Source: Oscillospiraceae bacterium (GTDB lineage Bacteria > Bacillota > Clostridia > Oscillospirales > JAGBHD01). From it: DNA of 61,650 bases. A program made the translations under genes and the position numbers. Position 1 is the stretch's first letter, and the number at the start of each line of letters is the position of its first letter. Under the pieces are notes generated by a model, which saw only the letters and a list, made by a program, of their open reading frames with translations, was not told the origin of the DNA and ran no database searches. This document shows, piece by piece, positions 5,790-41,949 of this stretch. The DNA lies in NCBI GenBank assembly GCA_018110785.1, contig JAGBHD010000054.1, forward strand, positions 1 through 61,650. Reading direction: 5' to 3'.

Positions 5790-5790
5790 T

Positions 5791-5991: not shown

Positions 5992-6014
5992 TGGGAATGG
6001 AGGAAAATTTTACG

Positions 6015-6272
6015 ATGAGCGAAAGAAACCTCAGAAAAACAAGAGTGGGTATAGTTGTTAGCGACAAGATGGACAAGACAATCGTTGTTGCAGTTAAAGA
6101 CAATGTTACACATCCGCTTTATAAAAAGATCATCAAGCGTACAGTTAAATTCAAGGCGCACGATGAAAACAATGAGTGCTCTGTCGGCGACCGCGTTTCC
6201 ATTATGGAGACTCGTCCTTTGTCCAAAGACAAGAGATGGAGACTTGTAAAGATTATTGAAAAAGCTAAATAA
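6015..6272 (+). CDS. rpsQ: 30S ribosomal protein S17
   Basis: [23 protein letters not shown]. Start moved to ATG 6015, downstream of GGAGG. Confidence 0.98.
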
Positions 6273-6302
6273 TTTTCGTAAAACCGAAAGGAGGAACGCT
6301 CT

Positions 6303-6671
6303 GTGATACAGATGCAGACCTACCTCAAAGTGGCAGACAACACCGGTGCAAAAGAACTTATGTGCATTCGTGTGCTTGGAGGTTCACGCAGGAGGTACGC
6401 CAATATAGGTGATGTTATCGTTGCTACGGTTAAAAAAGCAGCACCCGGCGGCGTTGTGAAAAAAGGTGAAGTTGTTAAAGCAGTTATCGTTCGTTCTGTA
6501 AAAGGCGTTCGTCGCGATGACGGAAGCTATATCAGATTCGATGAGAATGCTGCAGTTATTATCAAAGAAGACAAGAACCCGAAAGGAACTCGTATTTTCG
6601 GGCCTGTCGCAAGAGAGCTTAGAGATAAGGATTATATGAAGATTCTTTCCCTTGCTCCCGAAGTACTTTAA
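6303..6671 (+). CDS. rplN: 50S ribosomal protein L14
   Basis: [19 protein letters not shown]; GTG start. Confidence 0.99.
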
Positions 6672-6686
6672 GGAGGTGCTACCAGA

Positions 6687-7010
6687 ATGAATAAGGTTCA
6701 TGTTAAAACCGGAGATACCGTAGTAATTCTTTCCGGCGATGATAAAGGTAACACCGGCAAGGTACTCGCAGTTAGCCCCAAAGAGGGTAAAGTTATTATC
6801 GAGGGAAGAAACCTCGTTACAAAGCACGTAAAACCCCGCAGAATGGGCGAGCAGGGCGGCATAGTTAAGGCTGAGGCTGCTATCTATGCTTCCAAGGTTC
6901 AGCTCGTTTGCCCCAGCTGCAATAAGCCTACCAGAATCGCTCATAAGATTTTAGAGGACGGCAGCAAGGTTCGCGTGTGCAAAAATCCGAAGTGCGGAAA
7001 AACATTCTAA
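6687..7010 (+). CDS. rplX: 50S ribosomal protein L24
   Basis: KOW motif [13 protein letters not shown]; C-terminal CPSC...CKNPKC. Confidence 0.98.
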
Positions 7011-7024
7011 GTGGAGGAATAAAA

Positions 7025-7564
7025 ATGGCAATTCTTAAAGAGATATATGCTAAAGATGTAGCGCCTGCTTTAATGCAGAAGTTCGGTTACAAAAGCGTAA
7101 TGCAGATTCCGAAGCTTGAGAAGGTTATTGTTAACGTTGGCTCGGGAGAGGCAAAAGACAATGACAAAATGGTTGACGCTATCATGAATGATCTCGCTTT
7201 AATTACCGGACAGAGAGCAGTTAAATGTATTTCGAAGAAGTCCGTTGCGAACTTCAAGCTTCGTGCAGGACAGGTAATCGGATGCAGAGTTACTCTCCGC
7301 GGCGAGAAAATGTATGAGTTTGTTTACAAGCTCTTCAATCTCGCTCTTCCCCGAGTAAGAGACTTCCATGGCATCAGCGCTAACTCGTTTGACGGCAGAG
7401 GAAACTACAACTTCGGTATCAAGGAACAGCTTATTTTCCCTGAAATCGAATATGACAAGATTGATAAGGTACGCGGCATGGACATTGCATTTGTTACAAC
7501 CGCTAATACCGACGAAGAAGCTAAAGAGCTGCTCACATTATTGGGCGCTCCGTTCGAGAAATAA
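7025..7564 (+). CDS. rplE: 50S ribosomal protein L5
   Basis: [24 protein letters not shown]. Start at ATG 7025 after GGAGG. Confidence 0.99.
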
Positions 7565-7577
7565 GGAGGGGTGAATT

Positions 7578-7763
7578 GTGGCAAAGACTTCAATGAAAAT
7601 TAAACAGCAGAGAGAGCCCAAGTACTCTACTCGTGCTTATAATCGCTGCAAGATTTGCGGCAGACCCCATGCTTATCTTCGCAAATATGGTATTTGCCGT
7701 ATATGCTTTAGAGAATTAGCCTACAAGGGCGAAATTCCGGGCGTTAAAAAGGCAAGCTGGTAA
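7578..7763 (+). CDS. rpsZ: 30S ribosomal protein S14 type Z (Zn-binding)
   Basis: 61 aa, CKICGR...CRICFRE. Confidence 0.98.
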
Positions 7764-26572: not shown

Positions 26573-27381
26573 TAAGAGAAAATCTACATACTCATACTTT
26601 ATATTGCGACGGGAAAAATACAGCCGAAGAGATGATTTTGTCGGCAATAGAAAAATCCTTTACCGATATCGGCTTTTCGGGACATTCATTTACAGAGTTT
26701 GATACGAGCTACTGTATGACCGAAACACCAGAATACCGCGCTGAGATTTTATCCCTTAAAGAAAAATACAAGGGAAAAATAAATGTATGGTTAGGGCTTG
26801 AAAAGGATTATTTTTCAAATGAGGATAGAGGGGCTTATGATTATATCATAGGTTCGGTTCATTATGTTTTGAAAAACGGGCAATATATTCCTGTTGACGA
26901 ATCGGCTGAGACTATAAAAAATGCTGTGGAAAATGAGTATGGCGGAGATTATTCTCTTTTTATAAAGGATTATTATGAAGAGGTTTCCCTTATTGTTAAA
27001 AAGACCGATTGCGATATTATCGGGCATTTTGATTTAATATCGAAATATTTTGATGATTTAGGAATAGAAGAAACAGAAAGCTATTTAGAGATAGCTTTTA
27101 ATGCATTAGAAAAGCTTATTCCCGAGGGCAAACCCTTTGAGATAAATACGGGAGCTATTGCCCGCGGTACTAAAAAGCTTCCTTACCCCTCATTTAAAAT
27201 ACTGAAAAAAATAAATGAGCTTGAAGGCAAGATAATTTTCTCGAGCGACTGCCATAACAAGGAATATCTTGACTGCTATTTTGAAGAAAGCTTAGAAATA
27301 GCAAAAAAAGCGGGTTTTGCGGCAAGGTCGGTAATAACCGATAAAGGGTTTATAGAAATTGGTTTAGAGGAAGAATTATGA
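26569..27381 (+). CDS. hisK: Histidinol-phosphatase, PHP (HisJ/HisK) family
   Basis: NLHTHT..CDG, IGSVH, IIGHFDL, EINTG, SDCH; located in the his operon. Confidence 0.85.
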
Positions 27382-28160
27382 GAATAATTGATTTTCATAC
27401 GCATGTTTATCCTGAGAAGATAGCTCAGAAGGCTACGGATAATGTTTGCCATTTTTACGATATAAAGGGCGGTATTTTAGGAACAGCCGATATGCTTATA
27501 AAAGAGGGACAAAAAGTAGGGGTTGATAAATACGTTATCCTACCTGTTGCCCTAAAGCCTGAAAATGTTCGCCATTTAAACGAGGCAACCCTTTTTGAAA
27601 CCAAAAAGCATAAAGAATTTATCGGCTTTGGTACGGTACATGCGGCTCAGAATAACATAATGGAAGAAATAGAATATATTGAAAGTGCAGAGCTTCGCGG
27701 AATAAAAATGCACCCCGATTTTCAGCATTTTCCGATAGATGATAACAGGCTTTTTGAAATGTATGATTATTTACAAGATAAAATGCCTGTAATACTGCAT
27801 ACGGGAGATCCGCGATATACCTATTCGCATCCCGAAAAATTAAAAAAGGTTCTTGATAATTTTCCTCACCTTACCGTTATAGCGGCTCATATGGGCGGTT
27901 GGATGGTTTTTTCTGAGGCTTTAGAGATTTTGGGAAAAACAAACTGCTATGTGGATATTTCGAGTTCAAGAATGTTTATGGAGGGCGAAGCCATTTATAA
28001 ATATATAAACGGCTACGGCGCCGACAGAATTCTTTTTGGAAGCGATTTTCCGATTTGGAGCCCTGCAGACGAGTTTAACGCTTTGATGAAGCTTAATATA
28101 TCAGATGAGGCATTGGAGAAAATTGCACATAAAAACGCAGAGCGGATTTTAAAAATTTGA
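27378..28160 (+). CDS. Amidohydrolase family (Amidohydro_2) metal-dependent hydrolase
   Basis: IDFHTH, GIKMHP, LHTGD, AAHMGG, RILFGSDFP. Confidence 0.8.
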   Translation: MRIIDFHTHVYPEKIAQKATDNVCHFYDIKGGILGTADMLIKEGQKVGVDKYVILPVALKPENVRHLNEATLFETKKHKEFIGFGTVHAAQNNIMEEIEYIESAELRGIKMHPDFQHFPIDDNRLFEMYDYLQDKMPVILHTGDPRYTYSHPEKLKKVLDNFPHLTVIAAHMGGWMVFSEALEILGKTNCYVDISSSRMFMEGEAIYKYINGYGADRILFGSDFPIWSPADEFNALMKLNISDEALEKIAHKNAERILKI

Positions 28161-28187: not shown

Positions 28188-28216
28188 TTGACAACGATAA
28201 AAAAATAGTTTAATAT
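28188..28216 (+). promoter_or_regulatory. SigA promoter for the Leu T-box unit
   Basis: TTGACA-17 bp-TAATAT. Confidence 0.7.
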
Positions 28217-28241
28217 GTTTAATATATTAAATTTAAATATT

Positions 28242-28512
28242 AAATGCTATGAAGATATTAAGCGTAAGCGCAAATCGTATTTTCAGAGAGCCGTCGGTAG
28301 GTGCGAGGCGGCAGACGAGCTTTCAGCTGTCTCGTATCGGAGCAGGATTTCTGAAATCAGAGTAAGAGATCTCGGTTGGCCCCGTAATAGGCCAAGGGTT
28401 TGTTGGAACCTTAGAGTGGTTTTCTTGATAAAGAAAACAATGTCGGGTGGTACCGTGGTCAATAATTTGTTTGATCATCCCGCAGAGATTATTTCTCTGC
28501 GGGATTTTTTTA
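28242..28512 (+). promoter_or_regulatory. T-box riboswitch, Leu (specifier CUC at 28331-28333)
   Basis: GA motif GCTATGAA, AGAGA box, GGTGCGA loop, stem II AGTA, T-box GGGTGGTACCGTG, terminator ATCCCGCAGAGA/TCTCTGCGGGATTTTTT (28477-28510). Confidence 0.9.
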
Positions 28513-28532
28513 TTTAGAAAGGGAGAAAAAGT

Positions 28533-29903
28533 ATGAAAAAGATTGCAGTTTCCGATATGACTCTCAGAGTATTGGCGGAAGAAAACAAAAGGTTAACCTT
28601 TAGAGAGAAATTAAATATAGCATCTAACCTAGATGCTTGCGGTATAACTTCAATCGAGCTACCGTCGGTTGGTAAAGAAGCTGAAAACGAAGTAATTTAC
28701 CGAACTATAGCTACCTCTGTTAAAAGTGCGGAAGTTTGCATAGACGGCGGAGATACAATAGAAAGCGTTGAAGCGGCATACAACTGCATAAAAGATGCAG
28801 CCTCCCCTTGCATTCAGATAGTTATGCCTACATCTACAGTTCAGATGGAATATATTTATCATCTCAAATCAGCCGCTATGATTTCTAAAATAGCAGAGCT
28901 TGTATCTTTCGCGGCGAAAAAGGGAGCAAAGGTTGAATTTGTAGCAAGAGATGCTTCCAGAGCCGAAGAGGGATTTATCGAGGAATGCGCTAAAACTGTT
29001 TTTGAAAGCGGCGCCTCGGCGATTACTATTTGCGATGATGCGGGAATTTATTTCCCTGAGGATTACAGCGAGATAATTGCAAAGGTTAAAGGAAATACAG
29101 ATATAAAGGTTTATGCAGCTCCCTCGAACAGCTTAAGCCTCGCAGCGGCTTCGGCTATAGCCGCTATAAAGGCAGGAGCAGATGGAATTAAAACGGCTAT
29201 AAATGATAATTATTTAGGCGCAGATATTCTTTCTGATATATTCAGAAGCAAAGGCGCAGATATGAAGATAACAAGCTCTTTAGACAGCGCTGTTATAAAA
29301 ACTATGGTAGCTTCTCTTAAAGGCAGCGCAGCAATAGAGGTTAAAGAAGAGAAAGCGGCTTCCGTAGAGGTTATTGATGGTAGTTCAACAATAGCTGATA
29401 TTGCCGCCGCCGCAAAAAAACTCGGATACGAGCTTTCCGATGAGGATATCGGCAAGGTTTATGAGGAAGCAAAAAGGGTTATCCAGAAAAAGGGAAAGAT
29501 TGGAGCTAGTGAGCTTGAGGCTGTTATAGCTTCTGCTTCTATGCAGGTTCCCTCTACATTCCATGTTGTTTCTTATGTTGTAAACAGCGGAAATATTATT
29601 ACCGCAACGGCGAATGTAACCTTGGAGAAAAACGGCGAGAAAATAAGCGGTGTTGCAACTGGCGACGGCCCTATAGATGCGGCTTTCCATGCAATTGAGC
29701 AGATAGTAGGACACCATTACGAGCTTGACGATTTTCAGATACAGTCTATAACAAAGGGAAGAGAAGCGGTAGGCTCCTCTCTTATCAGGCTTAGAGCCGA
29801 CGGAAAGCTTTATTCCGGAACGGGGCTTTCTACCGATATCGTAGGCGCGAGTATTCGCGCTTATGTAAATGCGCTCAATAAAATAGTATATGAGGAAAAC
29901 TAA
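28533..29903 (+). CDS. LeuA (2-isopropylmalate synthase)-like protein with degenerate active site and intact C-terminal regulatory domain
   Basis: DMTLRVLAEE replaces DTTLRDGEQ; APSNSLSLA replaces HxHNDxGxA; GERAGN is absent. The C-terminus GDGPIDAAF...STDIVGASIRAYVNALNK is LeuA-like. Confidence 0.8.
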   Translation: MKKIAVSDMTLRVLAEENKRLTFREKLNIASNLDACGITSIELPSVGKEAENEVIYRTIATSVKSAEVCIDGGDTIESVEAAYNCIKDAASPCIQIVMPTSTVQMEYIYHLKSAAMISKIAELVSFAAKKGAKVEFVARDASRAEEGFIEECAKTVFESGASAITICDDAGIYFPEDYSEIIAKVKGNTDIKVYAAPSNSLSLAAASAIAAIKAGADGIKTAINDNYLGADILSDIFRSKGADMKITSSLDSAVIKTMVASLKGSAAIEVKEEKAASVEVIDGSSTIADIAAAAKKLGYELSDEDIGKVYEEAKRVIQKKGKIGASELEAVIASASMQVPSTFHVVSYVVNSGNIITATANVTLEKNGEKISGVATGDGPIDAAFHAIEQIVGHHYELDDFQIQSITKGREAVGSSLIRLRADGKLYSGTGLSTDIVGASIRAYVNALNKIVYEEN

Positions 29904-29904
29904 T

Positions 29905-32355
29905 ATGAAACTTGCTTTTTCAACCAAATATATAAATCCTGATTCCTTTTTAGAGCTTTGTAATTTTACCTCTGAATACGGATTTTCGGGATTTGAGGTA
30001 GCAAATGCTATCGCTGATAAAAAGCGCCATGAGGATAGCATATTTCATTCTTCTGAAACCGCAGGAGCAAAAAGAAAGCTTGTAAACCGCCATATTGAGA
30101 TAAGCGCTCTTGCATTTCCCGAAGCTATAAACGATAATACCGATGCAGAAGATTTGAAAAAATATGTAGAAATGGCATCTAATGTTTCGGGAAGCGGGGT
30201 AATAGTTGAATTTGAAACGATACCCGAAAGAGAGAAACTTAAAGCGATTTTTGGCCCTGCTATAGAAACAGCCGAGAAATTCGGCGTTATGATTATGATA
30301 GAAACGGCGGGACCTCTTTCCGACACAAAAAAGGTATTAGAGGTTATAAATGTTTTTGAAACCGCTGCTTTAGGGGTTGCATGGAATATAAGAGAAACCT
30401 ATTTTAAAGCGGGAGAGTCTGCCGATAAAACTATCCAGACCTTAGGCGCTTATATCTCTTATGTTCGCTTGGGGGACAAAAAAGGAGAGAAAAACGTTCT
30501 CATCGGCGATGGAGAGCTTCCTGTTCGCGATTTTATGAATGCCCTTCGCTCTCTTAATTACGATGGCTTTATCTCGGCAGACTGGAATGACGATATTACC
30601 TCTGCAGATATTGTTCTTACCCATTTTGTAAGCTATATGGCTTCTTTAGCGGCTAAAGAAACTGCTTCTAAAGAGATTTATTATAATCACTCTAAAACGG
30701 GAACATTCCCTTGGAAGAAATATGATGTTTTAGATATAACCTTTTCTGAGGTTCTCGATACTATGGCGGAAAGATACCCCGACCAATATGCATTTAAATA
30801 TACAACTCTCGACTATACGCGCACATACGCGCAGTTCAGAGAGGATGTTGATAAGGTTGCGGCGGCGCTTATTTCTATGGGCGTTAAGGCGGGACATCAT
30901 GTAGCTATATGGGCAACAAATGTTCCTCAATGGTTTTTAACCTTCTGGGCATCTGTTAAGATTGGCGCAGTTTTGGTAACCGTTAATACGGCATATAAAA
31001 TTCATGAGGCGGAATATCTGCTTCGCCAGTCGGATACCCATACTTTAGTTATGATAGACAGCTGCAAGGATTCTAATTATAAGGAAATTATAGAAGAGCT
31101 TTGCCCTGAGCTTAAAAACACAGTTCCCGGAACACCTCTTTATTCTAAAACTCTGCCATTTTTGCGCAATGTTGTAACCGTAGGCTTTAAGATGGACGGC
31201 GCTTTGGAATGGAATGAGTTTATGGAACGAAGCTCTTTAGTTCCTATAGAAGAGGTAAGAAGAAGAGCATCTAAGGTAGTTCCCGATGATGTTTGCAATA
31301 TGCAATATACCTCAGGAACAACGGGATTCCCCAAAGGCGTTATGCTGACACACCGCAATATTATAAACAACGGCAAGATAATCGGCGACCGAATGGATAT
31401 TTCAACTGCCGACAGAATGATGATTCAGGTTCCCATGTTCCATTGCTTCGGAATGGTTCTCTCGATGACTAATATGATGACTCACGGGGGAACAATTTGT
31501 CCTATGCCTTATTTCTCGCCGAAGTCTTCGCTTGCTTGTATAAATCAAGAAAAGATTACCTGTTTTAACGGTGTACCTACGATGTTTATCGCGATGTTTA
31601 ATCATGCAAATTTCTCAAAGACCGATTTTTCTCATATAAGAACGGGGATTATGGCAGGCGCCAACTGCCCTCCCGATTTAATGCGAAGAGCGGCGGCAGA
31701 GATGAATATGACTGAAATTATCAGCGTTTACGGACAGACAGAGGCTTCCCCCGGATGCACGATGGGAGAGGTAAATGAAGACCTTGAGCATAGGGTTGAA
31801 ACGGTTGGAAGCGCCTTTCCGGGAGTTGAATGTAAGATTATTGATCCCGAAACGGGAGAGGAACTGCCCGACGGAGAAAATGGCGAATTTGTTGCTCGCG
31901 GATATAATATAATGAAAGGGTATTATAAGATGCCCGAAGCTACCGAACAGACTATTGATAAAGACGGCTGGCTTCACAGCGGAGATATATGCTGCCGCAC
32001 TCCCGACGGATATTATAAGGTAACAGGCAGACTTAAGGATATGATAATTCGCGGCGGCGAAAATTTATATCCAAGAGAAATAGAGGAATTTTATTTAACA
32101 CATGATAAGGTCCGCGATGTTCAGGTTGTAGGCGTACCCGATAGCCGATATGGCGAAGAGGCCTGCGCTTGGATAATTCTTCATAAAGGGGTTTCTTCCG
32201 ATGAAGCTGAAATGAGGGAATACGGAGAAAGCCATATGGCAAAACACAAGGTCCCGAGATACTTTATTTTTACTAAAGAATTCCCGATGAATGCGGCAGG
32301 AAAGATACTTAAATATAAAATGAGAGATGAATCTATAAAAAAATTAGGACTTTAA
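29905..32355 (+). CDS. Fusion of a xylose-isomerase/AP-endonuclease-2-like TIM barrel and an AMP-dependent acyl-CoA synthetase
   Basis: N-terminus MKLAFST...YVRLGD...LIGDGELP..L...YDGFISADW. C-terminus YTSGTTGFPKG, YGQTEASP, WLHSGD, GRLKDMIIRGGEN, AGKILK. Start 29905 chosen from RBS GAGG. Confidence 0.85.
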   Translation: MKLAFSTKYINPDSFLELCNFTSEYGFSGFEVANAIADKKRHEDSIFHSSETAGAKRKLVNRHIEISALAFPEAINDNTDAEDLKKYVEMASNVSGSGVIVEFETIPEREKLKAIFGPAIETAEKFGVMIMIETAGPLSDTKKVLEVINVFETAALGVAWNIRETYFKAGESADKTIQTLGAYISYVRLGDKKGEKNVLIGDGELPVRDFMNALRSLNYDGFISADWNDDITSADIVLTHFVSYMASLAAKETASKEIYYNHSKTGTFPWKKYDVLDITFSEVLDTMAERYPDQYAFKYTTLDYTRTYAQFREDVDKVAAALISMGVKAGHHVAIWATNVPQWFLTFWASVKIGAVLVTVNTAYKIHEAEYLLRQSDTHTLVMIDSCKDSNYKEIIEELCPELKNTVPGTPLYSKTLPFLRNVVTVGFKMDGALEWNEFMERSSLVPIEEVRRRASKVVPDDVCNMQYTSGTTGFPKGVMLTHRNIINNGKIIGDRMDISTADRMMIQVPMFHCFGMVLSMTNMMTHGGTICPMPYFSPKSSLACINQEKITCFNGVPTMFIAMFNHANFSKTDFSHIRTGIMAGANCPPDLMRRAAAEMNMTEIISVYGQTEASPGCTMGEVNEDLEHRVETVGSAFPGVECKIIDPETGEELPDGENGEFVARGYNIMKGYYKMPEATEQTIDKDGWLHSGDICCRTPDGYYKVTGRLKDMIIRGGENLYPREIEEFYLTHDKVRDVQVVGVPDSRYGEEACAWIILHKGVSSDEAEMREYGESHMAKHKVPRYFIFTKEFPMNAAGKILKYKMRDESIKKLGL

Positions 32356-32374
32356 AATTTTTTTAAAAAAGTAC

Positions 32375-32403
32375 TTGACAGTAAAACTTTAGTGTGCTAA
32401 TAT
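32375..32403 (+). promoter_or_regulatory. SigA promoter for the Ile T-box unit
   Basis: TTGACA-17 bp-TAATAT with extended TG. Confidence 0.75.
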
Positions 32404-32420
32404 GATTTCATCAATTTAAT

Positions 32421-32682
32421 AAAGGCTATGACGAAGACGGACTTAACATAGAGTTTTAAAGAGAGTCGGGGGCGGTGGAAGCCCGATAAACAAGTGTTCT
32501 GTTTCCTATCACTTCTGAGCCGGAGATCCGAAAAGAATTTCTTAGTAGGCGTCTCTCGTGATTGCTGCGTTAATGCATACGGCTTGTTAGAGCCTGAGGG
32601 GCATCTTAAAGATGCAATTTGAGTGGTACCGCGGGTATTGATTTTCAAAACTCGTCTCAAGTTTTTTGAGACGGGTTTTTAT
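32421..32682 (+). promoter_or_regulatory. T-box riboswitch, Ile (specifier AUC at 32508-32510)
   Basis: GCTATGACGAAG...ATC-A-CTTC-TGAGC stem I, AGAGA and GGTGGAA boxes, AATTTGAGTGGTACCGCG, terminator ACTCGTCTCAA/TTGAGACGGGTTTTTT. Confidence 0.92.
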
Positions 32683-32707: not shown

Positions 32708-34975
32708 ATGGAACTTAATACAGCCATGGAAAGACTTACGGAGATTGCTCGCCGAATACGCGAGATGCGAGAAATTTTAGGCTACAGCATTTCCGATATG
32801 GCTTTGAAAACCGAGGTCAGCGAAGAGCAGTATCTTGCGTTTGAAAGCGGTACGGCTGATATACCGTTCTCATTTATTCATAAATGCGCTTTGGTGTTTA
32901 ATGTTGAGCTTACCGAGCTTTTAGAAGGCAACAGCGCAAATCTTTCGAGCTATACAGTAACGAGAAAGGGAGAAGGACAGGAAACCGCTAAAGAAGACGG
33001 TATTGATATTAAAAACCTTGCTCCTAAATTTAAAGATAAGATAGCAGAGCCTTATTGGGTAAGATACGAATATTCTGCTTCTCAGCAAAATAAGCCTATT
33101 CATTTAACAAAGCACAGCGGACAGGAGTTTGACCTTGTTCTAAAGGGTACTTTAAAGGTTCAGATAGGCGAACATACAGAGGTTTTGCATGAGGGCGACA
33201 GCATTTATTACGACAGCTCAACACCTCACGGAATGATAGCTGTTAACGGAGAGGATTGCGTATTCTGCGCAGTTGTTCTCCCCGGAGAGGAAACAAAAGA
33301 AGAGGTTGTAAGACAGAGCATTGCTTCGGCAAAAACCTCCGAAGAGCTTATCTGCGAGGAGTTTGTTAAACCTTTGGAAGATGAAAACGGGGTTTTAAAG
33401 AAGATTGACTTTGTTAATACCGAGAGGTTCAACTTCGGATTTGATATCGTTGATAAAATCGCAGATAAATATCCCGAAAAATTAGCAATGCTTTATGTTG
33501 ATAAAAACCATAACGAGAAAAGATTTACCTTTAAGGATATAAAGAGAGCCTCTAACCAATGCGCTAACTATTTCGCTTCGCTTGGAATCGGAAAAGGCGA
33601 TAAGGTTATGCTCGTTTTGAAAAGACATTATCAGTTCTGGTTTTCTATGGTTGCTCTTCATAAGCTCGGCGCTGTTGCGATTCCTGCAACAAACCAGCTC
33701 AAAGAGCACGATTTTGAATATCGCTATAATGCGGCAGGGGTTAAGGCTATTATCTGCACATCTGATGGAGATACTGCCGAAATCGCTGAAAATGCGGCAA
33801 AGAAATGCCCTGAAGTTAAAACCAAAATTATCGTAGGAAATCCCCGCGAGGGCTGGTGCGACTTTAACAGCGAATACACCCGCTTTTCGGGAAAATTCGA
33901 AAGAAGCGAGGACACACCTGCAGGTGATGAAACTGCTTTAATGTTCTTCACATCGGGAACAACAGGAAACCCAAAAATGGCGGCTCATAAACATACCTAC
34001 GGTCTTGGACATTTTGTAACGGCTAAATACTGGCATTGTTGCGAAAGAGATGGCCTCCATTTTACAATTTCTGACACCGGCTGGGGAAAATCCCTTTGGG
34101 GCAAGCTTTACGGACAATGGCTCTGCGAGGGCGCGGTATTTGTTTACGACTTTGACAGATTTGATGCGGCAGATATTTTACCTATGTTTGCAAAATACAA
34201 GATAACAACCTTCTGCGCTCCGCCCACGATGCTTCGTATGTTTATAAAAGATGACCTTTCTAAATACGATTTGTCATCTATCCATCATATGACAACGGCA
34301 GGAGAGGCATTAAACCCTGAGGTTTATAAGCAATTCAAAGAGGCAACAGGTCTCCAGATTATGGAAGGCTTCGGTCAGACAGAAACAACCCTTACCATCT
34401 GCAACCTAAGAGGAACAACTCCGAAAATAGGCTCTATGGGCAAGGCTTCGCCGCAATACGATGTTGATATCGTAGATGCTGAAGGTAAATCCGTACCTAA
34501 CGGAGAAACCGGAGAAATCGTTATTCATACGGATAAAACCGTTCCATGCGGACTTTTCAATGAATATTATCTTGACGAAGAGAAAACGAATGAAGCTTGG
34601 TACGACGGAATGTATCATACAGGCGATACTGCTTGGAGAGATGAAGACGGTTATTTTTGGTATGTTAGCCGCATAGACGATGTTATCAAATCTTCGGGTT
34701 ACCGCATAGGACCTTTTGAAATCGAAAGCGTTATTATGGAGCTTCCTTATGTTTTAGAATGCGGTGTTTCAGCTGCTCCCGACGAGGTTCGCGGTCAGGT
34801 TGTTAAAGCTAGTGTTGTGCTTACCAAAGGAACTGTTCCCTCCGATGAACTCAAAAAGGAAATTCAGGAATATGTTAAGAGCCATACAGCTCCTTACAAG
34901 TATCCCAGAATCGTTGAATTCAGAGAGGAACTGCCGAAAACGATAAGCGGAAAAATCCAGCGCAATAAACTTTAA
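32708..34975 (+). CDS. XRE-HTH + cupin + AMP-dependent acyl-CoA synthetase fusion (medium/branched-chain type), Ile T-box controlled
   Basis: N-terminal HTH (RIREMREILGYS), cupin (HSGQEFDLV..GDSIYYDSSTPHGM), ligase motifs FTSGTTGNPK, GFGQTET, YHTGD, SSGYRIGPFEIE, PKTISGKIQR. Confidence 0.88.
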   Translation: MELNTAMERLTEIARRIREMREILGYSISDMALKTEVSEEQYLAFESGTADIPFSFIHKCALVFNVELTELLEGNSANLSSYTVTRKGEGQETAKEDGIDIKNLAPKFKDKIAEPYWVRYEYSASQQNKPIHLTKHSGQEFDLVLKGTLKVQIGEHTEVLHEGDSIYYDSSTPHGMIAVNGEDCVFCAVVLPGEETKEEVVRQSIASAKTSEELICEEFVKPLEDENGVLKKIDFVNTERFNFGFDIVDKIADKYPEKLAMLYVDKNHNEKRFTFKDIKRASNQCANYFASLGIGKGDKVMLVLKRHYQFWFSMVALHKLGAVAIPATNQLKEHDFEYRYNAAGVKAIICTSDGDTAEIAENAAKKCPEVKTKIIVGNPREGWCDFNSEYTRFSGKFERSEDTPAGDETALMFFTSGTTGNPKMAAHKHTYGLGHFVTAKYWHCCERDGLHFTISDTGWGKSLWGKLYGQWLCEGAVFVYDFDRFDAADILPMFAKYKITTFCAPPTMLRMFIKDDLSKYDLSSIHHMTTAGEALNPEVYKQFKEATGLQIMEGFGQTETTLTICNLRGTTPKIGSMGKASPQYDVDIVDAEGKSVPNGETGEIVIHTDKTVPCGLFNEYYLDEEKTNEAWYDGMYHTGDTAWRDEDGYFWYVSRIDDVIKSSGYRIGPFEIESVIMELPYVLECGVSAAPDEVRGQVVKASVVLTKGTVPSDELKKEIQEYVKSHTAPYKYPRIVEFREELPKTISGKIQRNKL

Positions 34976-35012: not shown

Positions 35013-35024
35013 TCTCTTATATTG

Positions 35025-35308
35025 TAAAGGCTTCGACGAAGAGGGCAAAAGAATGTTCCGGTTAAGAGAGGCGGCGGTTGGTGAAAGCTGCTCGAAGAAA
35101 TCTTTTGTTTGTAGCTTCTGAGCCGGAAGGAAGAAAGGGCAAAAAAGCCTTAGTAGAACCTTCCCGTGATTGCTGCGTAAATGCATAAGGCTTGATAGAG
35201 CCTGAGGGGCATCTTAAAGATGCAATTTGAGTGGTACCGCGGGATATAATTGATTTTATAGCTCGTCTCAAAGGAAACATATCTTTTGAGGCGGGCTGTT
35301 ATTGTTTA
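35025..35308 (+). promoter_or_regulatory. T-box riboswitch, Val (specifier GUA at 35111-35113)
   Basis: GACGAAG...GTA-G-CTTC-TGAGC stem I, AGAGA and GGTGAAA boxes, AATTTGAGTGGTACCGCG, terminator stem AGCTCGTCTCAAAG/TTTTGAGGCGGGCT. Confidence 0.92.
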
Positions 35309-35338
35309 AAACCCGCCGGCACAACGGGAGGAACTTAT

Positions 35339-37636
35339 ATGAATACTGCTACCGGTCTTGAATTTAAAATTAAAGAGATGGCGCAGCGAATTCGTACGCT
35401 TAGAGAAATAGTTGGAATTTCGCCTGATGAGATGGCGGCAAAAACAGGCATCAGCTCAGCAGAATATATTGCTTGCGAAGCGGGAGAGAAAGATTTAAAC
35501 TTTGCTTTTCTTTATCGCTGCGCGTTAGCTTTGAATGTTGATGTTACCGATATTATAGAGGGCGCAAGCCCCCGTCTTGCAGGATATACAGTTACAAGAA
35601 ACGGAGCCGGTCAGGAAATTCAAAAGGCGCACGGCATGACCTATTATAACCTTGCCGCTTCCTTTAAAAATCGTATCGCGGAGCCTTTGTATGTTATATC
35701 CCAATATGACGAAAAAGCGCAGAACGCCGATATTGAGCTTACGAGCCACGAAGGTCAGGAATGCGATGTTGTAGTTAAAGGAGCTTTAAAGGTTCAGGTA
35801 GGCGACCATATTGAAATTCTCCATGAGGGCGATAGCATTTATTACGATAGCTCAACCCCTCACGGAATGATAGCTGTTGAGGGCGAAGACTGTATTTTCT
35901 ATGCATTTGTTTTAAACCCCGCAAGCGAGCCTATTTCAAAGATTGCTCACGGCGGCGTTAGAGATTTTGTAGCGGCGCCTAACAAAAAGAAAAAAGAAGA
36001 AAAAAAGCGCATATGGGAAGACATTATTATTCCGACAGAAGATGATAACGGCGTTTTAAAGGCTATAAGCTTTAAAAATGAGGATAATTTCAACTTTGCT
36101 TTTGATGTTATTGACCGTTTAGGCAGAGAACAGCCCGAGAAAACAGCCATGATTCATATTTCAAGGGATAAAACAGAACGCCGTTTTACCTTTTCGGAGC
36201 TAAAAAGAGCATCGTCGCAAACTGCGAACTATTTTAAATCATTGGGCATCAAAAAGGGCGATAAAGTAATGCTTATTCTAAAGCGTCATTATCAGTTCTG
36301 GTTTTCAATGATAGCGCTTCATAAAATAGGTGCTATTGCAATTCCTGCGACAAATCAGCTTAAAGAGCACGATCTTACATACAGATTTAACAAAGCTAAT
36401 GTTAAAATGATAATCTGCACCTCTGATGACGGTGTTGCCGAAGAGGTTGAAAAGGCAGAAAAACATTCTCCCGAGCTTCAAACCAAAATCATAGTAGGCT
36501 CCCATAGAGATGGTTGGAGAAGCTTTGACGAGGAATATGGCTTATATACAGGCAAATTCGAGCGCGATGAAGAGTCCCCCTCGGGCGATGATATTATGCT
36601 TATGTATTTTACCTCGGGAACAACAGGAAATCCAAAAATCGCAATGCATAACTATAAATATCCGCTCGGTCATTTTATAACCGCGAAATATTGGCATTGT
36701 GTTAATCCCGATGGGCTTCACCTTACAATTTCCGATACAGGTTGGGCAAAGGCTGCATGGGGCAAGCTTTACGGACAATGGCTTTGCGAAGCAGGTCTTT
36801 TTGTTTACGATTTCGATAGATTTGATGCGAACGATATTATGCCAATGTTCGCTCGCTACGGAATTACGACCTTCTGCGCTCCGCCAACAATGCTTCGCAT
36901 GATGATAAAGCAGGATTTATCGAAATTTGATCTTTCCTCTATCGAGCATATGACAACGGCGGGAGAGGCATTAAACCCCGAAGTCTTCAGACAGTTTGAA
37001 AAGGCAACGGGACTGCAGATAATGGAGGGCTTCGGACAGACCGAAACGACGGTTGCTTTAGCTAACCTTGCAGGAACTAAGGCTAGGCTCGGCTCGATGG
37101 GAAAACCCGTTCCGCTTTATAATATAGAGCTTGTAGATTCAGATGATAAGCCTGTCCCTGTTGGCGAGGTAGGCGAGATTGTTATAAATATCAAAAACGG
37201 TACACCGCCCGGACTTTTCCAAGGATATTATACCGATGAAGAAAAAACCGCCGAATGCAAAAGAAACGGGTACTATCATACAGGCGATACTGCTTGGCGC
37301 GATGAAGACGGTTATTTCTGGTATGTAGGAAGGGTTGATGACGTTATTAAGTCATCAGGTTACCGCATAGGACCTTTTGAGATTGAAAATGTTATTATGG
37401 AGTTGCCCTATGTTTTAGAGTGCGGCGTTTCAGCTGAGCCTGATGAGGTAAGAGGTCAGGTAGTTAAGGCAAGTATAGTTTTAGTAAAAGGAACTGACGG
37501 CACTGACGAGCTGAAAAAGGAAATTCAGGAATATGTTAAAAACAGAACAGCTCCTTATAAATACCCCAGAGTTGTAGTTTTCAGAGATGAGCTTCCGAAA
37601 ACAACAAGCGGAAAAATTCAGAGAAATAAACTGTAA
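35339..37636 (+). CDS. XRE-HTH + cupin + AMP-dependent acyl-CoA synthetase fusion (paralogue of 32708..34975), Val T-box controlled
   Basis: Same domain order and motifs as the paralogue. True start is ATG 35339 after GGAGG; the longer ORF-track start lies inside the T-box. Confidence 0.88.
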   Translation: MNTATGLEFKIKEMAQRIRTLREIVGISPDEMAAKTGISSAEYIACEAGEKDLNFAFLYRCALALNVDVTDIIEGASPRLAGYTVTRNGAGQEIQKAHGMTYYNLAASFKNRIAEPLYVISQYDEKAQNADIELTSHEGQECDVVVKGALKVQVGDHIEILHEGDSIYYDSSTPHGMIAVEGEDCIFYAFVLNPASEPISKIAHGGVRDFVAAPNKKKKEEKKRIWEDIIIPTEDDNGVLKAISFKNEDNFNFAFDVIDRLGREQPEKTAMIHISRDKTERRFTFSELKRASSQTANYFKSLGIKKGDKVMLILKRHYQFWFSMIALHKIGAIAIPATNQLKEHDLTYRFNKANVKMIICTSDDGVAEEVEKAEKHSPELQTKIIVGSHRDGWRSFDEEYGLYTGKFERDEESPSGDDIMLMYFTSGTTGNPKIAMHNYKYPLGHFITAKYWHCVNPDGLHLTISDTGWAKAAWGKLYGQWLCEAGLFVYDFDRFDANDIMPMFARYGITTFCAPPTMLRMMIKQDLSKFDLSSIEHMTTAGEALNPEVFRQFEKATGLQIMEGFGQTETTVALANLAGTKARLGSMGKPVPLYNIELVDSDDKPVPVGEVGEIVINIKNGTPPGLFQGYYTDEEKTAECKRNGYYHTGDTAWRDEDGYFWYVGRVDDVIKSSGYRIGPFEIENVIMELPYVLECGVSAEPDEVRGQVVKASIVLVKGTDGTDELKKEIQEYVKNRTAPYKYPRVVVFRDELPKTTSGKIQRNKL

Positions 37637-37648: not shown

Positions 37649-38728
37649 ATGAAATACGAAATTTCTATAACCAAAACAGCGGCTCCAAAGCCTCACCCGA
37701 CCGATGAATCAAAGCTCGGTTTCGGAAGAATTTTTACAGATCACATGTTTTTAATGGATTATGCGGCTGATAAAGGCTGGTATAACGGAAGAATAGTTCC
37801 TTTCGGTCCCATCCCCGTTCACCCTGCTTCTACCGTTTTGCATTACGGCGCAGAGATATTTGAAGGACTTAAGGCCTATAGAACGGTTAATAACGAGATT
37901 AAATTATTCCGTCCGTTAGAAAACATAAAGCGCCTTAACAACAGCGCAGAGCGTTTATGCTTGCCTGAACTTGATGAAGAGGGCTGTCTTGATATTTTAA
38001 AGACATTGGTTGAACTAGAAAAGGATTGGGTTCCAAAGAGCGAGGGGACATCTCTTTATCTTCGTCCGTTCCTTTTCGGAAATGACCCGCATCTTGGAGT
38101 TCACGCAGTTAAAGAGGCTGTTTTTGCAGTTATCTGCTCACCCGTTGGCGCTTATTATGCAGAGGGCATAAACCCCGTTAAGATTGCTATTGAATCCGAA
38201 GATGTTCGCGCTGTTCGCGGCGGAACAGGATACGCTAAATGCGGCGGTAACTATGCGGCAAGTCTTAGAGCGGGAGAAAGAGCCGAAAGAAAGGGATATA
38301 CTCAGGTTCTTTGGCTTGACGGCGTTGAGAGAAAATATATTGAAGAAGTCGGCGCGATGAACGTTATGTTCAAAATCGACGGCAAAATTATAACCCCCGC
38401 GCTTACAGGCTCGGTACTCCCCGGTATAACAAGAAAATCCAGTATAGAGATGCTTCGCGATTGGGGATATGAGGTAGAGGAAAGACTTTTATCGGTTGAT
38501 GAGCTGTTTGCGGCGGCAGAAGACGGCAGCTTAGAAGAGGCTTGGGGAACAGGAACAGCGGCAGTTGTTTCTCCTATAGGTCATCTTTTCTATAACGGCA
38601 AGGAATATACTGTTTCCAATAATGAAATAGGTGAACTTACACAGAAGCTTTATGATAATCTTACAGGTATTCAGTGGGGCAAGATAGAAGATAAATACGG
38701 CTGGTGCGAAAAGGTTTGCAATGGGTAA
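37649..38728 (+). CDS. ilvE: Branched-chain amino acid aminotransferase
   Basis: LGFG..FTDHM, LHYGAEIFEGLKAY, LYLRP, KCGGNYA, EEVGAMN, LPGITR, GTAAVVSP. Confidence 0.96.
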   Translation: MKYEISITKTAAPKPHPTDESKLGFGRIFTDHMFLMDYAADKGWYNGRIVPFGPIPVHPASTVLHYGAEIFEGLKAYRTVNNEIKLFRPLENIKRLNNSAERLCLPELDEEGCLDILKTLVELEKDWVPKSEGTSLYLRPFLFGNDPHLGVHAVKEAVFAVICSPVGAYYAEGINPVKIAIESEDVRAVRGGTGYAKCGGNYAASLRAGERAERKGYTQVLWLDGVERKYIEEVGAMNVMFKIDGKIITPALTGSVLPGITRKSSIEMLRDWGYEVEERLLSVDELFAAAEDGSLEEAWGTGTAAVVSPIGHLFYNGKEYTVSNNEIGELTQKLYDNLTGIQWGKIEDKYGWCEKVCNG

Positions 38729-39383
38729 GAGAATTTACATTATTGCAGGGCATTACGGAAGCGGAAAAACAAATATAGCGGTAAACTTGGCGCTAAAGCT
38801 TAGAAAAGAGGGAAAAGAGGATAAAATTGCCGACCTTGATATAGTTAACCCCTATTTCAGAACTAAGGACAGCGCGGATGTTTTGGAAAAAGCGGGAATA
38901 GAGCTGATTTCTCCCCATTTTGCCAATACAAATGTTGATCTACCCGCTCTTCCGCCCGAAACCTATAGCATATTCCAGAATAAGAATTTTTCTGCAGTAA
39001 TAGATGTTGGCGGAGATGACAGAGGCGCCTATGCGCTAGGCAGATATGCTCCCTACATTTTGGAAGAAAATAATTTCGAAATGTGCTTCGTTGCAAATTT
39101 CTATAGACCTTTAACAAAAACGGCTGAAGAAGCGATAGAGGTAATGAGAGAAATTGAAGCCGCCTGCGGCATAAAATTTACTGCGATTATAAACAATTCC
39201 AATCTTGGTTCTGAGACTGCAAAAGAGGATATCTTAGCCTCTAACATTCAGGCTGAGCGGTTGAGAGAAATATCCTCTCTTCCGATACTTTTTAATTCGG
39301 TAAGAGCCGATATATCAGAGGAAATAGAAGACAGCTTTCCTCTTAATTTGCAGGAAAAATATTACGATATAAAGGAGAATTAG
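38721..39383 (+). CDS. SIMIBI/ParA-MinD-like P-loop NTPase associated with vor genes
   Basis: GHYGSGKT Walker A, ADLDIVNPYFR, DVGGD. Confidence 0.75.
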   Translation: MGKRIYIIAGHYGSGKTNIAVNLALKLRKEGKEDKIADLDIVNPYFRTKDSADVLEKAGIELISPHFANTNVDLPALPPETYSIFQNKNFSAVIDVGGDDRGAYALGRYAPYILEENNFEMCFVANFYRPLTKTAEEAIEVMREIEAACGIKFTAIINNSNLGSETAKEDILASNIQAERLREISSLPILFNSVRADISEEIEDSFPLNLQEKYYDIKEN

Positions 39384-39384
39384 T

Positions 39385-39591
39385 ATGGCAAAGGTTAGTT
39401 TTAAAACTGATATTTGCAAGGGCTGCGGACTTTGTGTTGACGCGTGTCCGAAAAAAATTATCGCTTTAGCGAAAGATAAATTAAATGCGAAAGGACATTC
39501 TCCCGCGATTATTACCGATCAGGATAAATGCATCGGTTGCGCTTTTTGCGCAACAATGTGTCCCGACTGTGTAATAACCGTTGAGAAATGA
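39385..39591 (+). CDS. 2x[4Fe-4S] ferredoxin (oxidoreductase delta subunit)
   Basis: [12 protein letters not shown] and [12 protein letters not shown]. Confidence 0.93.
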
Positions 39592-39601
39592 GGTGTTGAA
39601 A

Positions 39602-40662
39602 ATGGCAGAAAAGGTTTTAATGAAAGGTAACGAAGCTATTGCGGAAGCGGCTATTAAAGCGGGCTGTCGCCATTATTTCGGTTATCCTATAACCCCTCAG
39701 ACAGAAATTGCGGCTTATATGGCAAAGCGTATGCCTAAAATCGGCGGTGTATTTCTACAGGCAGAAAGCGAGGTTTCTGCAATTAATATGGTTTACGGAG
39801 TTGCGGGAGCAGTTTCAGAGTTATGACCTCTTCTTCTTCCCCCGGTATTTCCTTAAAGCAAGAGGGTATTTCTTATATCGCAGGCGCAGATTTGCCCGCG
39901 CTTATCGTTAATGTTCAGCGTGGAGGCCCCGGCCTTGGCGGCATTCAGCCCTCTCAGTCGGACTATTTTCAGGCAACAAAGGGCGGCGGACACGGAGATT
40001 ACCATCTTATCGTTTTAGCCCCTGCTTCTGTTCAGGAAATGGCAGACCTTACAATTAAGGCTTTCGATTTATCCGAGAAATACAGAGTTCCTACAATGCT
40101 TTTAGCAGACGGAACTATGGGACAGATGATGGAGCCTGTTGAACTTCCTGAGATAGCTCCCAAAGAAAGCGAAAAGCCTTGGGCTGTAAGAGGAACAAAA
40201 ATGGAGAGAGAACATAATATTATAAACTCTCTTTATTTAAAACCCGAAATTTTAGAGAAAACAAACTTCGAAAGATTCGAGAGATACAAGGCTATCGAAG
40301 AAAACGAAGCTATGTATGAAGAATATATGATGGACGATGCTGAGATTTGCGTTGTTGCATTCGGTATTGCGGCGAGAGTTTCCAAAAACGCAGTTACTGC
40401 GGCTCGCAAAAAAGGCATCAAGGTAGGACTTATAAGGCCTATAACCCTCTGGCCTTTCCCGAAAGAGGCTTTGAAGAAGGCGGCAGACAAGGTAAAAGGA
40501 TTTATCTCTGTTGAGCTTTCTATGGGCCAGATGATTGAGGATATAAAGCTTTCTACCGAATGCAAAAAGCCGGTAGAGCTTTGCAACCGCACAGGCGGTA
40601 TGATTCCTACCCCCGAAGAAGTTCTTGCTTCTATTGAAAAATTAGCAAAGGAGGCAAAATAG
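39602..40662 (+). CDS. vorB: 2-oxoacid (3-methyl-2-oxobutanoate):ferredoxin oxidoreductase alpha-type subunit; apparent 1-bp deletion at ~39812
   Basis: [23 protein letters not shown]. Adding one G at 39812 gives [14 protein letters not shown] and joins the 39823..40662 frame. Confidence 0.88.
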
Positions 40663-40663
40663 A

Positions 40664-41416
40664 ATGGTAGTATTTGAGAAACCGAAGGCATTAACCGATG
40701 CGCCTTTGCATTATTGCCCTGGCTGCACACACGGTATTATTCACCGATTAGTAGCAGAGGCTATTGATGAGCTCGGTGTAGAGGGAAAAACTGTTGGTGT
40801 TGCTCCTGTTGGATGCGCAGTTATGGCATATGATTATTTTGCCTGCGATATGGTAGAAGCGGCTCACGGAAGAGCCCCCGCTGTTGCAACAGGTCTTAAA
40901 AGAGCTATGCCCGAAAATATAATCTTTACATATCAAGGCGATGGAGATTTAGCTTCTATCGGTATGGCAGAAACTGTTCATGCCGCAACAAGAAACGAAA
41001 ATATAACAATTATTTTCGTTAACAATGCAATCTACGGTATGACAGGCGGTCAGATGGCTCCTACATCTCTCCCCGGTCAGGTAACCCAGACCTCTCCTTA
41101 CGGAAGAGACACAGCCGTTCAGGGATTTCCTATTAAGGTAAGCGAGATGCTTTCCGCTTTAGATGGTCCCGAATATATCGAGCGCGTTGCCGTTAATAAT
41201 GTTAAAAATGTTAAGAATGCTAAAAAGGCAATCTTAAAGGCATTTAAAAATCAGGTTGAGGGAAAAGGATTTTCTTTAATTGAGGTTGTTTCCTCCTGCC
41301 CTACAAACTGGGGTATGACTCCTTCTAAAGCTTTAGAGTGGGTAGAAGAAAAAATGATTCCCTATTATCCTCTCGGCGTTTATAAAGATAAGAGCGCTGA
41401 AAAGAAGGAGGACTAA
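40664..41416 (+). CDS. 2-oxoacid:ferredoxin oxidoreductase beta (TPP-binding) subunit
   Basis: YCPGCTHG, HGRAPA, QGDGDLASIG...NNAIYGMTGGQ, CPTNW. Confidence 0.92.
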   Translation: MVVFEKPKALTDAPLHYCPGCTHGIIHRLVAEAIDELGVEGKTVGVAPVGCAVMAYDYFACDMVEAAHGRAPAVATGLKRAMPENIIFTYQGDGDLASIGMAETVHAATRNENITIIFVNNAIYGMTGGQMAPTSLPGQVTQTSPYGRDTAVQGFPIKVSEMLSALDGPEYIERVAVNNVKNVKNAKKAILKAFKNQVEGKGFSLIEVVSSCPTNWGMTPSKALEWVEEKMIPYYPLGVYKDKSAEKKED

Positions 41417-41418
41417 TC

Positions 41419-41949
41419 ATGACAACACAGATTTTAATCGCAGGCTTCGGCGGACAGGGCGTTTTATTCGCAGGAAAGTTTATAGCGTATAAAGGTCTTA
41501 TCGAGAATAAGGAGGTTAGCTGGCTCCCGTCATACGGACCTGAAATGCGCGGCGGAACGGCTAACTGCAGTATTATTATAAGCGATGAGCCTGTAGGCTC
41601 GCCTATCGTATCTAACCCTGATGTTCTTATCGCGATGAATTTACCCTCTTTGGATAAATATGAAAAGGAAGCAAAACCCGGCTCTTTGATTTTTGTTGAC
41701 AGTACTCTTATTGAGCGCAAGGTAGAAAGAGGAGATGTTAAAGCCTTCTATATCCCCGCAACAAAAATGGCTATGGATGCAGGAATTCCTACTTTAGCTA
41801 ATATGATAATTGTAGGAAAGGTTTTGAAAGAAACCGAAGGACTTTCCAAAGATAATCTTGAAGAGGCTATGAAAAAGGTTGTTTCGGCAAAGAGAATAGA
41901 GCTTTTAGATATGAACATCAAGGCTATTGAAGCAGGATATAATTATTAA
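41419..41949 (+). CDS. 2-oxoacid:ferredoxin oxidoreductase gamma subunit
   Basis: AGFGGQG, SYGPEMRGGTA. Confidence 0.92.
   Translation: MTTQILIAGFGGQGVLFAGKFIAYKGLIENKEVSWLPSYGPEMRGGTANCSIIISDEPVGSPIVSNPDVLIAMNLPSLDKYEKEAKPGSLIFVDSTLIERKVERGDVKAFYIPATKMAMDAGIPTLANMIIVGKVLKETEGLSKDNLEEAMKKVVSAKRIELLDMNIKAIEAGYNY

Follow-up and report, generated by a model that had tools for sequence, protein, structure and literature searches.

We argue that a relative of the 2-isopropylmalate synthase (LeuA) has stopped being an enzyme and has been kept as a regulator. The protein is encoded at 28533..29903 in a stretch of 61,650 nucleotides (nt) from an Oscillospiraceae bacterium, read on the forward strand of contig JAGBHD010000054.1 (GCA_018110785.1). 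We call this whole stretch the window. The gene lies behind a leucine T-box and directly ahead of a gene for an acyl-CoA ligase. The best explanation is that the ligase is an isovalerate-CoA ligase and that the LeuA-like protein is its non-catalytic subunit, through which leucine feeds back on it. We put the probability of this at roughly 55%, with the ligand, the inhibition and the ligase substrate being the parts that we infer. The initial annotation of the window had proposed a retained leucine sensor. Every computational test that it named as able to refute that idea came out in favour of it, and leucine sensing and feedback are what we infer on top of those tests. The parts of the unit are as follows.

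28188..28216, forward strand: promoter-like site TTGACA-17-TAATAT ahead of the Leu T-box (consensus match only, 10/12)
28240..28485, forward strand: T-box leader with specifier CUC (Leu) (RF00230, 107.3 bits against a gathering score of 93)
28477..28512, forward strand: T-box terminator hairpin and T run (hairpin 28477-28505, a 12-pair stem with 7 GC pairs, then TTTTTTT)
28533..29903, forward strand: LeuA-derived protein without catalytic ligands, 456 amino acids (aa) (open reading frame, Pfam, NCBIfam, 3ewb alignment, AlphaFold2 model, structure matches)
28533..29216, forward strand: dead DRE-TIM barrel of that protein, aa 1-228 (eight strands, metal ligands lost, predicted ligase docking face at aa 101-108, 140, 143 and 169-170)
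29217..29552, forward strand: accessory or linker region, aa 229-340 (lowest conservation within the protein; disorder predicted at residues 264-278)
29553..29900, forward strand: LeuA regulatory (LeuA_dimer) domain, aa 341-456 (two beta-beta-beta-alpha units, nearly invariant)
29905..32355, forward strand: 816-aa fusion of a xylose-isomerase-like triose-phosphate isomerase (TIM) barrel (aa 1-265) and an AMP-forming acyl-CoA ligase (aa about 272-816) (Pfam, NCBIfam, synteny)

The open reading frame (ORF) of the LeuA-like protein starts with ATG in the ORF list and runs for 456 aa. Pfam recognises two domains: residues 6-224 match the HMGL-like barrel (PF00682, E 1.5e-27, profile 4-221 of 260), and residues 325-451 match LeuA_dimer (PF08502, E 7.7e-32, 110.4 bits against a cut-off of 24.9, profile 4-130 of 131). 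The best NCBIfam models are LeuA equivalogs, with NF002086 at the top (233.4 bits against a cut-off of 532, E 4e-69). Four of the six LeuA models (NF002086, TIGR00973, NF002087 and NF002084) score best on a stretch from residue 288 or 291 to 449-455. The AlphaFold2 (AF2) model has a mean predicted local distance difference test (pLDDT) score of 82.5 and keeps the eight barrel strands and both beta-beta-beta-alpha units of the regulatory domain. Its top structural match is the leucine-bound LeuA of M. tuberculosis (3fig), and Foldseek matches it to LeuA structures. The LeuA architecture that the initial annotation saw in an intact ORF is therefore borne out by the two Pfam domains and the full AF2 fold. 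The C-terminal regulatory domain is as well kept as it had said: the GDGPIDAAF and STDIVGASIRAYVNALNK stretches are both found, alongside the LeuA_dimer match of 110 bits. As far as profiles and predicted fold can tell, the likeness to LeuA is not chance, and the protein is a LeuA relative by fold and descent.

It is worth considering the catalytic site on its own. We aligned the protein to the catalytic domain of Listeria LeuA (3ewb). DTTLRDGEQ of 3ewb corresponds to D8-MTLRVLAEE, so V13 stands at the position of the metal Asp. SHCHDD corresponds to A195-A196-P197-S198-N199-S200, which puts A196 and S198 at the two His positions, so both His ligands are gone. The alignments to LeuA structures stop at residue 224 or 225, before the GERAGN strand, and the sequence there is INDNYLGAD. 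Other motifs have changed too: TSDVH is now STVQ, EDATR is RDASR and DTVG is DDAG. We take the Asp, HxH and GERAGN positions to be the metal or catalytic sites of DRE-TIM metallolyases. That DTTLRDGEQ had become DMTLRVLAEE, that HxH had become APS and that GERAGN was missing had all been claimed beforehand, and the 3ewb alignment agrees on each. The curated cut-off for LeuA equivalogs is not reached either. Four features that define LeuA are thus absent, namely the metal Asp, the HxH pair, GERAGN and a score above the curated cut-off, and the protein should not be filed as LeuA.

The same site is dead across the family. One genome per species was scanned, which gave at least 599 pattern matches, at least 530 of them encoding a relative, and the best 80 loci were used for family counts. 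The metal Asp is present in 1/80, the first His in 0/80 and the second His in 0/80. A representative library at 50% identity gave 4327 proteins at E <= 0.001 and 253 at E <= 1e-30. We examined the best 150, of which 109 are at least 440 aa long. The Asp/His/His triad is missing from 107 of these 109 full-length representatives, and the two exceptions are 504 and 516 aa. One of the three ligand residues is kept in fourteen of the 109, with some alignment uncertainty. The dead site and the architecture recur in more than 100 clusters at 50% identity.

A dead site does not make a decaying gene. A complete ORF of 450-465 aa is found in 79 of the 80 loci, and more than 120 public proteins of about 456 aa are 56-82% identical to the protein. 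Mean pairwise identity is 0.53 for the dead barrel, 0.46 for the linker and 0.85 for the regulatory domain. The ratios of nonsynonymous to synonymous substitution rates (dN/dS, Nei-Gojobori) are 0.22, 0.27 and 0.036 in the same order; they come from 133 of 3160 pairs with dS <= 1.5 and are approximate because dS is near saturation. All parts of the protein are under purifying selection. This LeuA-like paralogue has lost its catalytic residues, yet selection still purifies it, and that is the mark of a pseudoenzyme. The random decay of orthologues that the initial annotation had told its readers to watch for is not what the substitution ratios and the intact ORFs show.

What is kept is as telling as what is lost. 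In the regulatory domain G377, G379 and D435 are present in 108/108 sequences. They belong to the motifs G-D-G-P-x-D and S-T-D, which in the AF2 model immediately precede two helices, one starting at residue 380 and the other at residue 436. A published statement on the LeuA-type leucine site places the carboxylate between two helix N-termini. The near-invariant motifs before helices 380 and 436 support a retained ligand site, judging by their place in the model. On the former catalytic face of the barrel the polar residues are kept as well. D8 is found in 105 of the 108 sequences, S101 in 105, E106 in 105, Y107 in 103, D140 in 106, R143 in 99 and D168 in 104. S101, E106, Y107, D140 and R143 persist in 99-106 of the 108 down to about 32% identity. 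Two positions on the barrel vary across the 80 sequences: position 12, that of the substrate Arg, is K in 33, R in 25 and others in the rest, and position 139, the Glu before DAxR in LeuA, is L in 24, K in 22, R in 19 and others in the rest.

The leader upstream of the gene is a leucine T-box. It scores above the gathering score of its family, it has a leucine codon at the specifier position, and it carries a terminator. The CUC specifier is our own reading of the covariance alignment, and it is followed by a purine and a stem. A T-box lies upstream of the LeuA-like gene in 11/11 loci tested, and CUC is at the specifier position in 12/12 leaders (the window and the 11 loci). The Leu T-box of the initial annotation therefore stands. 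One RNA-labelled run holds 0.53 of the sampled words of 28200-32400.

The partner gene begins almost where the LeuA-like gene ends. The LeuA-like stop is TAA at 29901-29903 and the fusion ATG is at 29905, which leaves the 1-nt spacer that had been reported. A GAGGA-type ribosome-binding site for the fusion lies inside the end of the LeuA-like ORF. Translation of the fusion is coupled to the LeuA-like gene. The ligase has both the N- and the C-domain of the AMP-binding ANL enzymes (PF00501, E 1.6e-96; PF13193, E 7.2e-15; plus PDB relatives). The TIM part of the fusion starts right after the LeuA-like stop in 80/80 loci. The ligase part follows in 78/80, and in the other two the contigs end first. 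The spacer is at most 3 nt in 62 of 79 loci. The fusion again adjoins in 5/5 genomes of the order with more distant orthologues (44-50% identity). The conserved linkage to the ligase, on which the initial annotation had staked its proposal, holds in all of these. The ligase domain has a mean pairwise identity of 0.88 and a dN/dS of 0.05, and the fused TIM domain has 0.555 and 0.17. Hyper-conservation is restricted to the regulatory domain of the LeuA-like protein (0.85; 0.036) and the N-domain of the ligase, aa 266-715 (0.88; 0.05), and leaves out both barrels.

The fused TIM domain itself (29905-30699) is modelled as a confident sugar-epimerase-like barrel (pLDDT 92.4). YcjR, UlaE and tagatose epimerases are its top matches, with 12-18% of residues identical. 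An alignment to 3wqo puts N161, R163 and R188 of the domain opposite Asp, His and His, and D235 opposite Glu. These four aligned positions of 3wqo are presumably the metal positions. They have changed, and therefore the fused domain may be a second non-canonical barrel.

A structure prediction bears on whether the two proteins meet. The input was the full LeuA-like protein with ligase residues 272-814, using paired 35-row alignments. The complex scores 0.67 (runs of 0.65, 0.67 and 0.70), and each of 3 controls scores 0.00. In calibration the score mark was reached by 58/80 solved complexes and by 2/110 mismatched pairs, counts that hold only roughly because custom alignments were used. At least 36% of contacts are shared between the three runs, and the pLDDT of the partner is at least 80. 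On the LeuA-like side the confident interface consists of residues 101-104, 106-108, 140, 143 and 169-170. On the ligase side it consists of residues 300-303, 534-535, 538, 540-541, 544-545 and 548. The model places the LeuA-like residues on the former catalytic face of the barrel, at the C-terminal ends of strands 4, 5 and 6. Conservation of at least 90% is reached by seven of these 11 interface residues, compared with 52 of the 228 residues of the barrel as a whole (hypergeometric P 0.0035). The ancestral LeuA residues S101, E106, Y107, D140 and R143 would then survive without the metal ligands because the predicted ligase interface is there. The model supports binding of the LeuA-like protein to the ligase, without showing it. 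The partnership with the 29905 protein that the initial annotation expected of a multimer-type prediction is thus favoured (0.67 against a best control of 0.00), but the predicted interface is on the former active-site face and not on the regulatory domain.

The neighbouring genes give the ligase a setting.

27378..28160, forward strand: Amidohydro_2 protein, the neighbour just upstream of the T-box (Pfam)
32419..32662, forward strand: second T-box, with AUC (Ile) as specifier (91.9 bits, slightly short of the gathering score, 93; AUC is our own reading, 4/4 leaders)
32708..34975, forward strand: fusion of a helix-turn-helix (HTH) domain, a cupin and an acyl-CoA synthetase, MbcS-like (Pfam, NCBIfam)
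35024..35273, forward strand: third T-box, specifier GUA (Val) (90.3 bits against 93; GUA is our own reading, 4/4 leaders)
35336..37636, forward strand: second HTH-cupin-acyl-CoA synthetase fusion (start taken as ATG 35336; in the ORF list it begins at GTG 35231, within the T-box)
37649..38728, forward strand: branched-chain amino acid aminotransferase IlvE (NF009897, 475 bits against 307)
38721..39383, forward strand: 220-aa P-loop protein with a weak ParA/Mrp-like N-terminus (between ilvE and vorD in 27/56 loci)
39385..41949, forward strand: 2-oxoacid:ferredoxin oxidoreductase, with ferredoxin-like delta, VorB (split), beta and gamma subunits

Both HTH-cupin synthetases match the MbcS model NF047394 below its cut-off (458.7 bits against 850). 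The HTH-cupin module may be a different built-in sensor that plays the role of the dead LeuA for the Ile and Val ligases. IlvE is the only class IV aminotransferase match in the genome. The P-loop protein may be a maturation or accessory factor. We counted the downstream order in 56 related loci with at least 2.5 kb beyond the TIM::ligase fusion. The fusion is followed directly by IlvE, the P-loop protein, VorD and VorB in 27/56, by an HTH-cupin ligase in 19/56, by an amidohydrolase and then an HTH-cupin ligase in 6/56, and by none of these in 4/56. The window fits a gene set that takes a branched acid to its acyl-CoA, then through reductive carboxylation and transamination to the amino acid, with one tRNA-gated ligase for each amino acid. 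Of 74 loci whose flanks are long enough, 48 have an Amidohydro_2 homologue whose end lies 182-700 nt before the LeuA-like gene. In 6 loci the homologue is directly downstream of the ligase instead, and in most loci it is outside the T-box.

The rest of the genome matters as well. The assembly is 1.40 Mb and 97% complete, and a profile search of it found no second LeuA_dimer gene, so that the ORF at 28533-29903 is the sole one. There is a second HMGL-like gene, on another contig, with a 466-aa open frame and no LeuA_dimer domain. The only Iso_dh and aconitase matches of the genome sit with it (2849-7711 of that contig). This cluster is probably a set of citrate synthase, aconitase and isocitrate dehydrogenase that leads from citrate to 2-oxoglutarate, and not leuBCD. 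At the level of the order we sampled 121 genomes (the family level reached 2), and at least 18 of them carry an orthologue at E <= 1e-100. A second LeuA_dimer gene is lacking in 16 of these 18 carriers, whereas 90 of the 103 non-carriers have one, in a comparison where relatives are not independent.

We argue that the following scheme brings these observations together. The organism would have no canonical LeuA and would make its leucine by salvage. The TIM::ligase fusion would activate isovalerate to isovaleryl-CoA, a Vor-type oxidoreductase would carboxylate the isovaleryl-CoA reductively, and IlvE would transaminate the product. Through the T-box, uncharged tRNA-Leu would switch on transcription of both genes. 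The dead LeuA would dock on the ligase through its former active-site face, and its intact regulatory domain would bind leucine and throttle the ligase. If leucine feeds back on the ligase in this way, the classical feedback on a first committed step has been moved onto the first enzyme of salvage. Restraint of a ligase that must move its domains would be a plausible route for the effect of leucine. In CimA, the LeuA-type regulatory domain senses an amino acid (Ile) autonomously when isolated, according to the available part of one report (PMC13381585).

One can take the scheme further, and we do so only tentatively. The dead-LeuA face might clamp the N-domain of the ligase, and leucine might stiffen the assembly as in the active isopropylmalate synthase (IPMS) and so stop the ligase. 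The sensor would then have lasted longer than the enzyme it came from, and would have passed to the enzyme that opens a replacement route, from isovalerate to leucine by reductive carboxylation. The fused barrel, whose His ligands are also lost, may join the sensor assembly.

Several points weigh against leucine feedback on an isovalerate-CoA ligase. The constraint on the regulatory domain is not accounted for by the predicted ligase interface, and the extreme conservation of that domain is not explained by ligand binding alone. The confident contacts are on the dead barrel only, and no contact of the regulatory domain with the ligase is predicted. The complex prediction, under a limit of 1000 residues, covered residues 272-814 of the fusion, which make up the ligase part. 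The ligand could differ from leucine, for LeuA-type domains bind Ile in CimA (PMC13381585). Isovalerate as the substrate is a guess from context, namely the Leu T-box and the neighbouring ilvE and vor genes, and the best NCBIfam model of the fusion is PRK12583, a generic fatty-acid-CoA ligase subfamily (669.8 bits against a cut-off of 832). VorB is split at 39581-40662 into overlapping ORFs of 81 aa and 279 aa that match the profile at 2-70 and 75-350, with a frame change near 39800-39826. Either the assembly is in error here or the frameshift or defect is real. Two of the 18 carriers hold a second LeuA-type gene. The longer proteins that were searched held no LeuA-like::ligase fused protein, which is weak evidence.

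The alternative that survives best is a structural or assembly subunit with no part in leucine sensing. It would stabilise the ligase, activate it or bridge it to the oxidoreductase for handover of the acyl-CoA, and its regulatory domain would serve dimerisation only. The predicted interface does use the barrel and not the regulatory domain, the tight translational coupling suggests a fixed stoichiometry, and the LeuA regulatory domain is also a dimerisation domain, by its Pfam name. However, dimerisation only would have to live with G377, G379 and D435 in 108/108 sequences, in the motifs before helices 380 and 436. It would also have to live with a regulatory-domain dN/dS of 0.036, far below that of the barrel, and with a unit placed under a leucine-specific T-box. 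We consider this alternative unlikely.

We see a new enzyme as a still weaker candidate. Here the barrel would have gained a metal-independent activity on a salvage intermediate, for instance an acyl-CoA or 2-oxoacid. In its favour, the barrel still has its eight strands and a dN/dS of 0.22, and even distant members conserve the polar residues of the former catalytic face. Yet all three metal ligands are gone, positions 12 (the substrate Arg) and 139 vary freely, the GERAGN strand has no counterpart, and in the predicted complex the ligase covers the conserved face. There is also no missing step for such an activity to fill because the ligase, Vor and IlvE make a complete route.

It is improbable that the protein is a leucine sensor for some other target (Vor, a transporter, RNA or DNA), with the ligase next to it through shared regulation only. 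Such a target would suit the hyper-conservation of the regulatory domain, which the predicted ligase interface leaves unexplained, and there are other conserved neighbours in Amidohydro_2, the P-loop protein and Vor. But the ligase fusion is the only invariant neighbour (80/80 loci) while the others vary, and the predicted binding to the ligase passes its controls. A functionless, decaying relic of leuA has the loss of catalytic residues on its side and little else, and we rejected a decaying pseudogene on the intact ORFs (79/80), a dN/dS well below 1 in every domain, the architecture kept family-wide by more than 100 clusters at 50% identity, and the conserved gene order and T-box.

A LeuA-derived subunit that returns leucine feedback to the ligase can be set beside several known systems. 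The short form of LeuA (NF002086/TIGR00973; 3ewb, 3rmj, 3fig) has the same order of DRE-TIM barrel, accessory helices and LeuA_dimer domain. It shares the TS..(H/Q)MEY, DAxR and D(T/D)xG motifs, and leucine control at the RNA level. Unlike LeuA, the protein of the window has no Asp, neither His and no GERAGN strand, it is about 50 aa shorter, and it scores 233 against 532 bits. Its gene is encoded with a ligase instead of leuBCD, and its catalytic face is a predicted protein-protein interface.

The ilv-leu biosynthesis operons of Firmicutes are under T-box control. As in those operons (RF00230), a T-box with a leucine specifier gates genes of leucine supply, but the gated genes here are a dead LeuA and an acyl-CoA ligase and not the isopropylmalate pathway. 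Allison, Bucklin and Robinson reportedly found in 1966, by labelling and growth experiments, that rumen bacteria make leucine from isovalerate and CO2. The chemistry we propose is the same as that of their carboxylation route, with putative gene assignments.

HisZ is a catalytically dead paralogue of HisRS that serves as the histidine-sensing regulatory subunit of short-form HisG, and its binding and regulation have been measured. By analogy, the LeuA-like protein would also be a dead paralogue from the metabolism of the same amino acid, acting as end-product sensor for the first enzyme of the pathway. It differs from HisZ in protein family and partner, and its binding and regulation are predicted or deduced. 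There is a further likeness to IlvH/IlvN, the valine-binding subunit of acetolactate synthase, and to the CimA domain, where a separable sensor of branched-chain amino acids controls a catalytic partner (PMC13381585, from the portion available). IlvH differs in being of ACT type and not a dead enzyme, and in CimA the sensor domain lies inside an active enzyme (same portion of PMC13381585). MbcS of S. aureus activates branched short-chain acids to CoA esters and feeds fatty-acid synthesis, as described in the accessible parts of PMC10026030 and PMC11167679. The two HTH-cupin ligases of the window resemble MbcS through their matches to its model below the cut-off. Those accessible parts mention no T-box and no LeuA-like partner for MbcS (PMC10026030, PMC11167679). 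The ligase next to the dead LeuA is of another, PRK12583-like subfamily.

A literature search turned up no description of a dead IPMS paralogue and no assignment of genes to the isovalerate route, with most matches judged without full text. Part of the search yielded only papers on rumen nutrition, on MbcS of S. aureus or on unrelated subjects. If our reading is correct, this would be a clear case of an allosteric sensor that survived the death of its own enzyme and was re-used on an unrelated one. It would also assign genes and two-level control, by T-box and feedback subunit, to the making of leucine, isoleucine and valine from branched short-chain acids.

Gut and rumen Clostridia commonly carry the family, which is a large one: at least 530 stretches in species-representative genomes encode relatives, and the clusters at 50% identity number more than 100. 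The 80 loci come mostly from metagenome-assembled genomes of gut or rumen Clostridia labelled Christensenellaceae, Acutalibacteraceae or Oscillospiraceae, plus one named isolate. Where names are shown, NCBI records say 'hypothetical protein' and JGI says '2-isopropylmalate synthase'. It had been expected that automated pipelines would mislabel the gene as leuA. This is only partly true because the NCBI name is 'hypothetical protein' and only the JGI names are wrong. Metabolic reconstructions probably misjudge leucine auxotrophy because the family goes by 'hypothetical protein' or by the name of the wrong enzyme.

The distribution of the gene looks patchy. In the other genome of the genus an orthologue is absent at E <= 1e-100, but a LeuA_dimer gene is present in a 511-aa open frame. 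The protein is 56-82% identical to proteins of other lineages, against only 44-50% within the sample of its own order. Going by these identities, horizontal transfer is possible. Near the start of the window there is an S10-Clostridia ribosomal protein leader at 836-914 (RF03136, 49.8 bits against 35.1).

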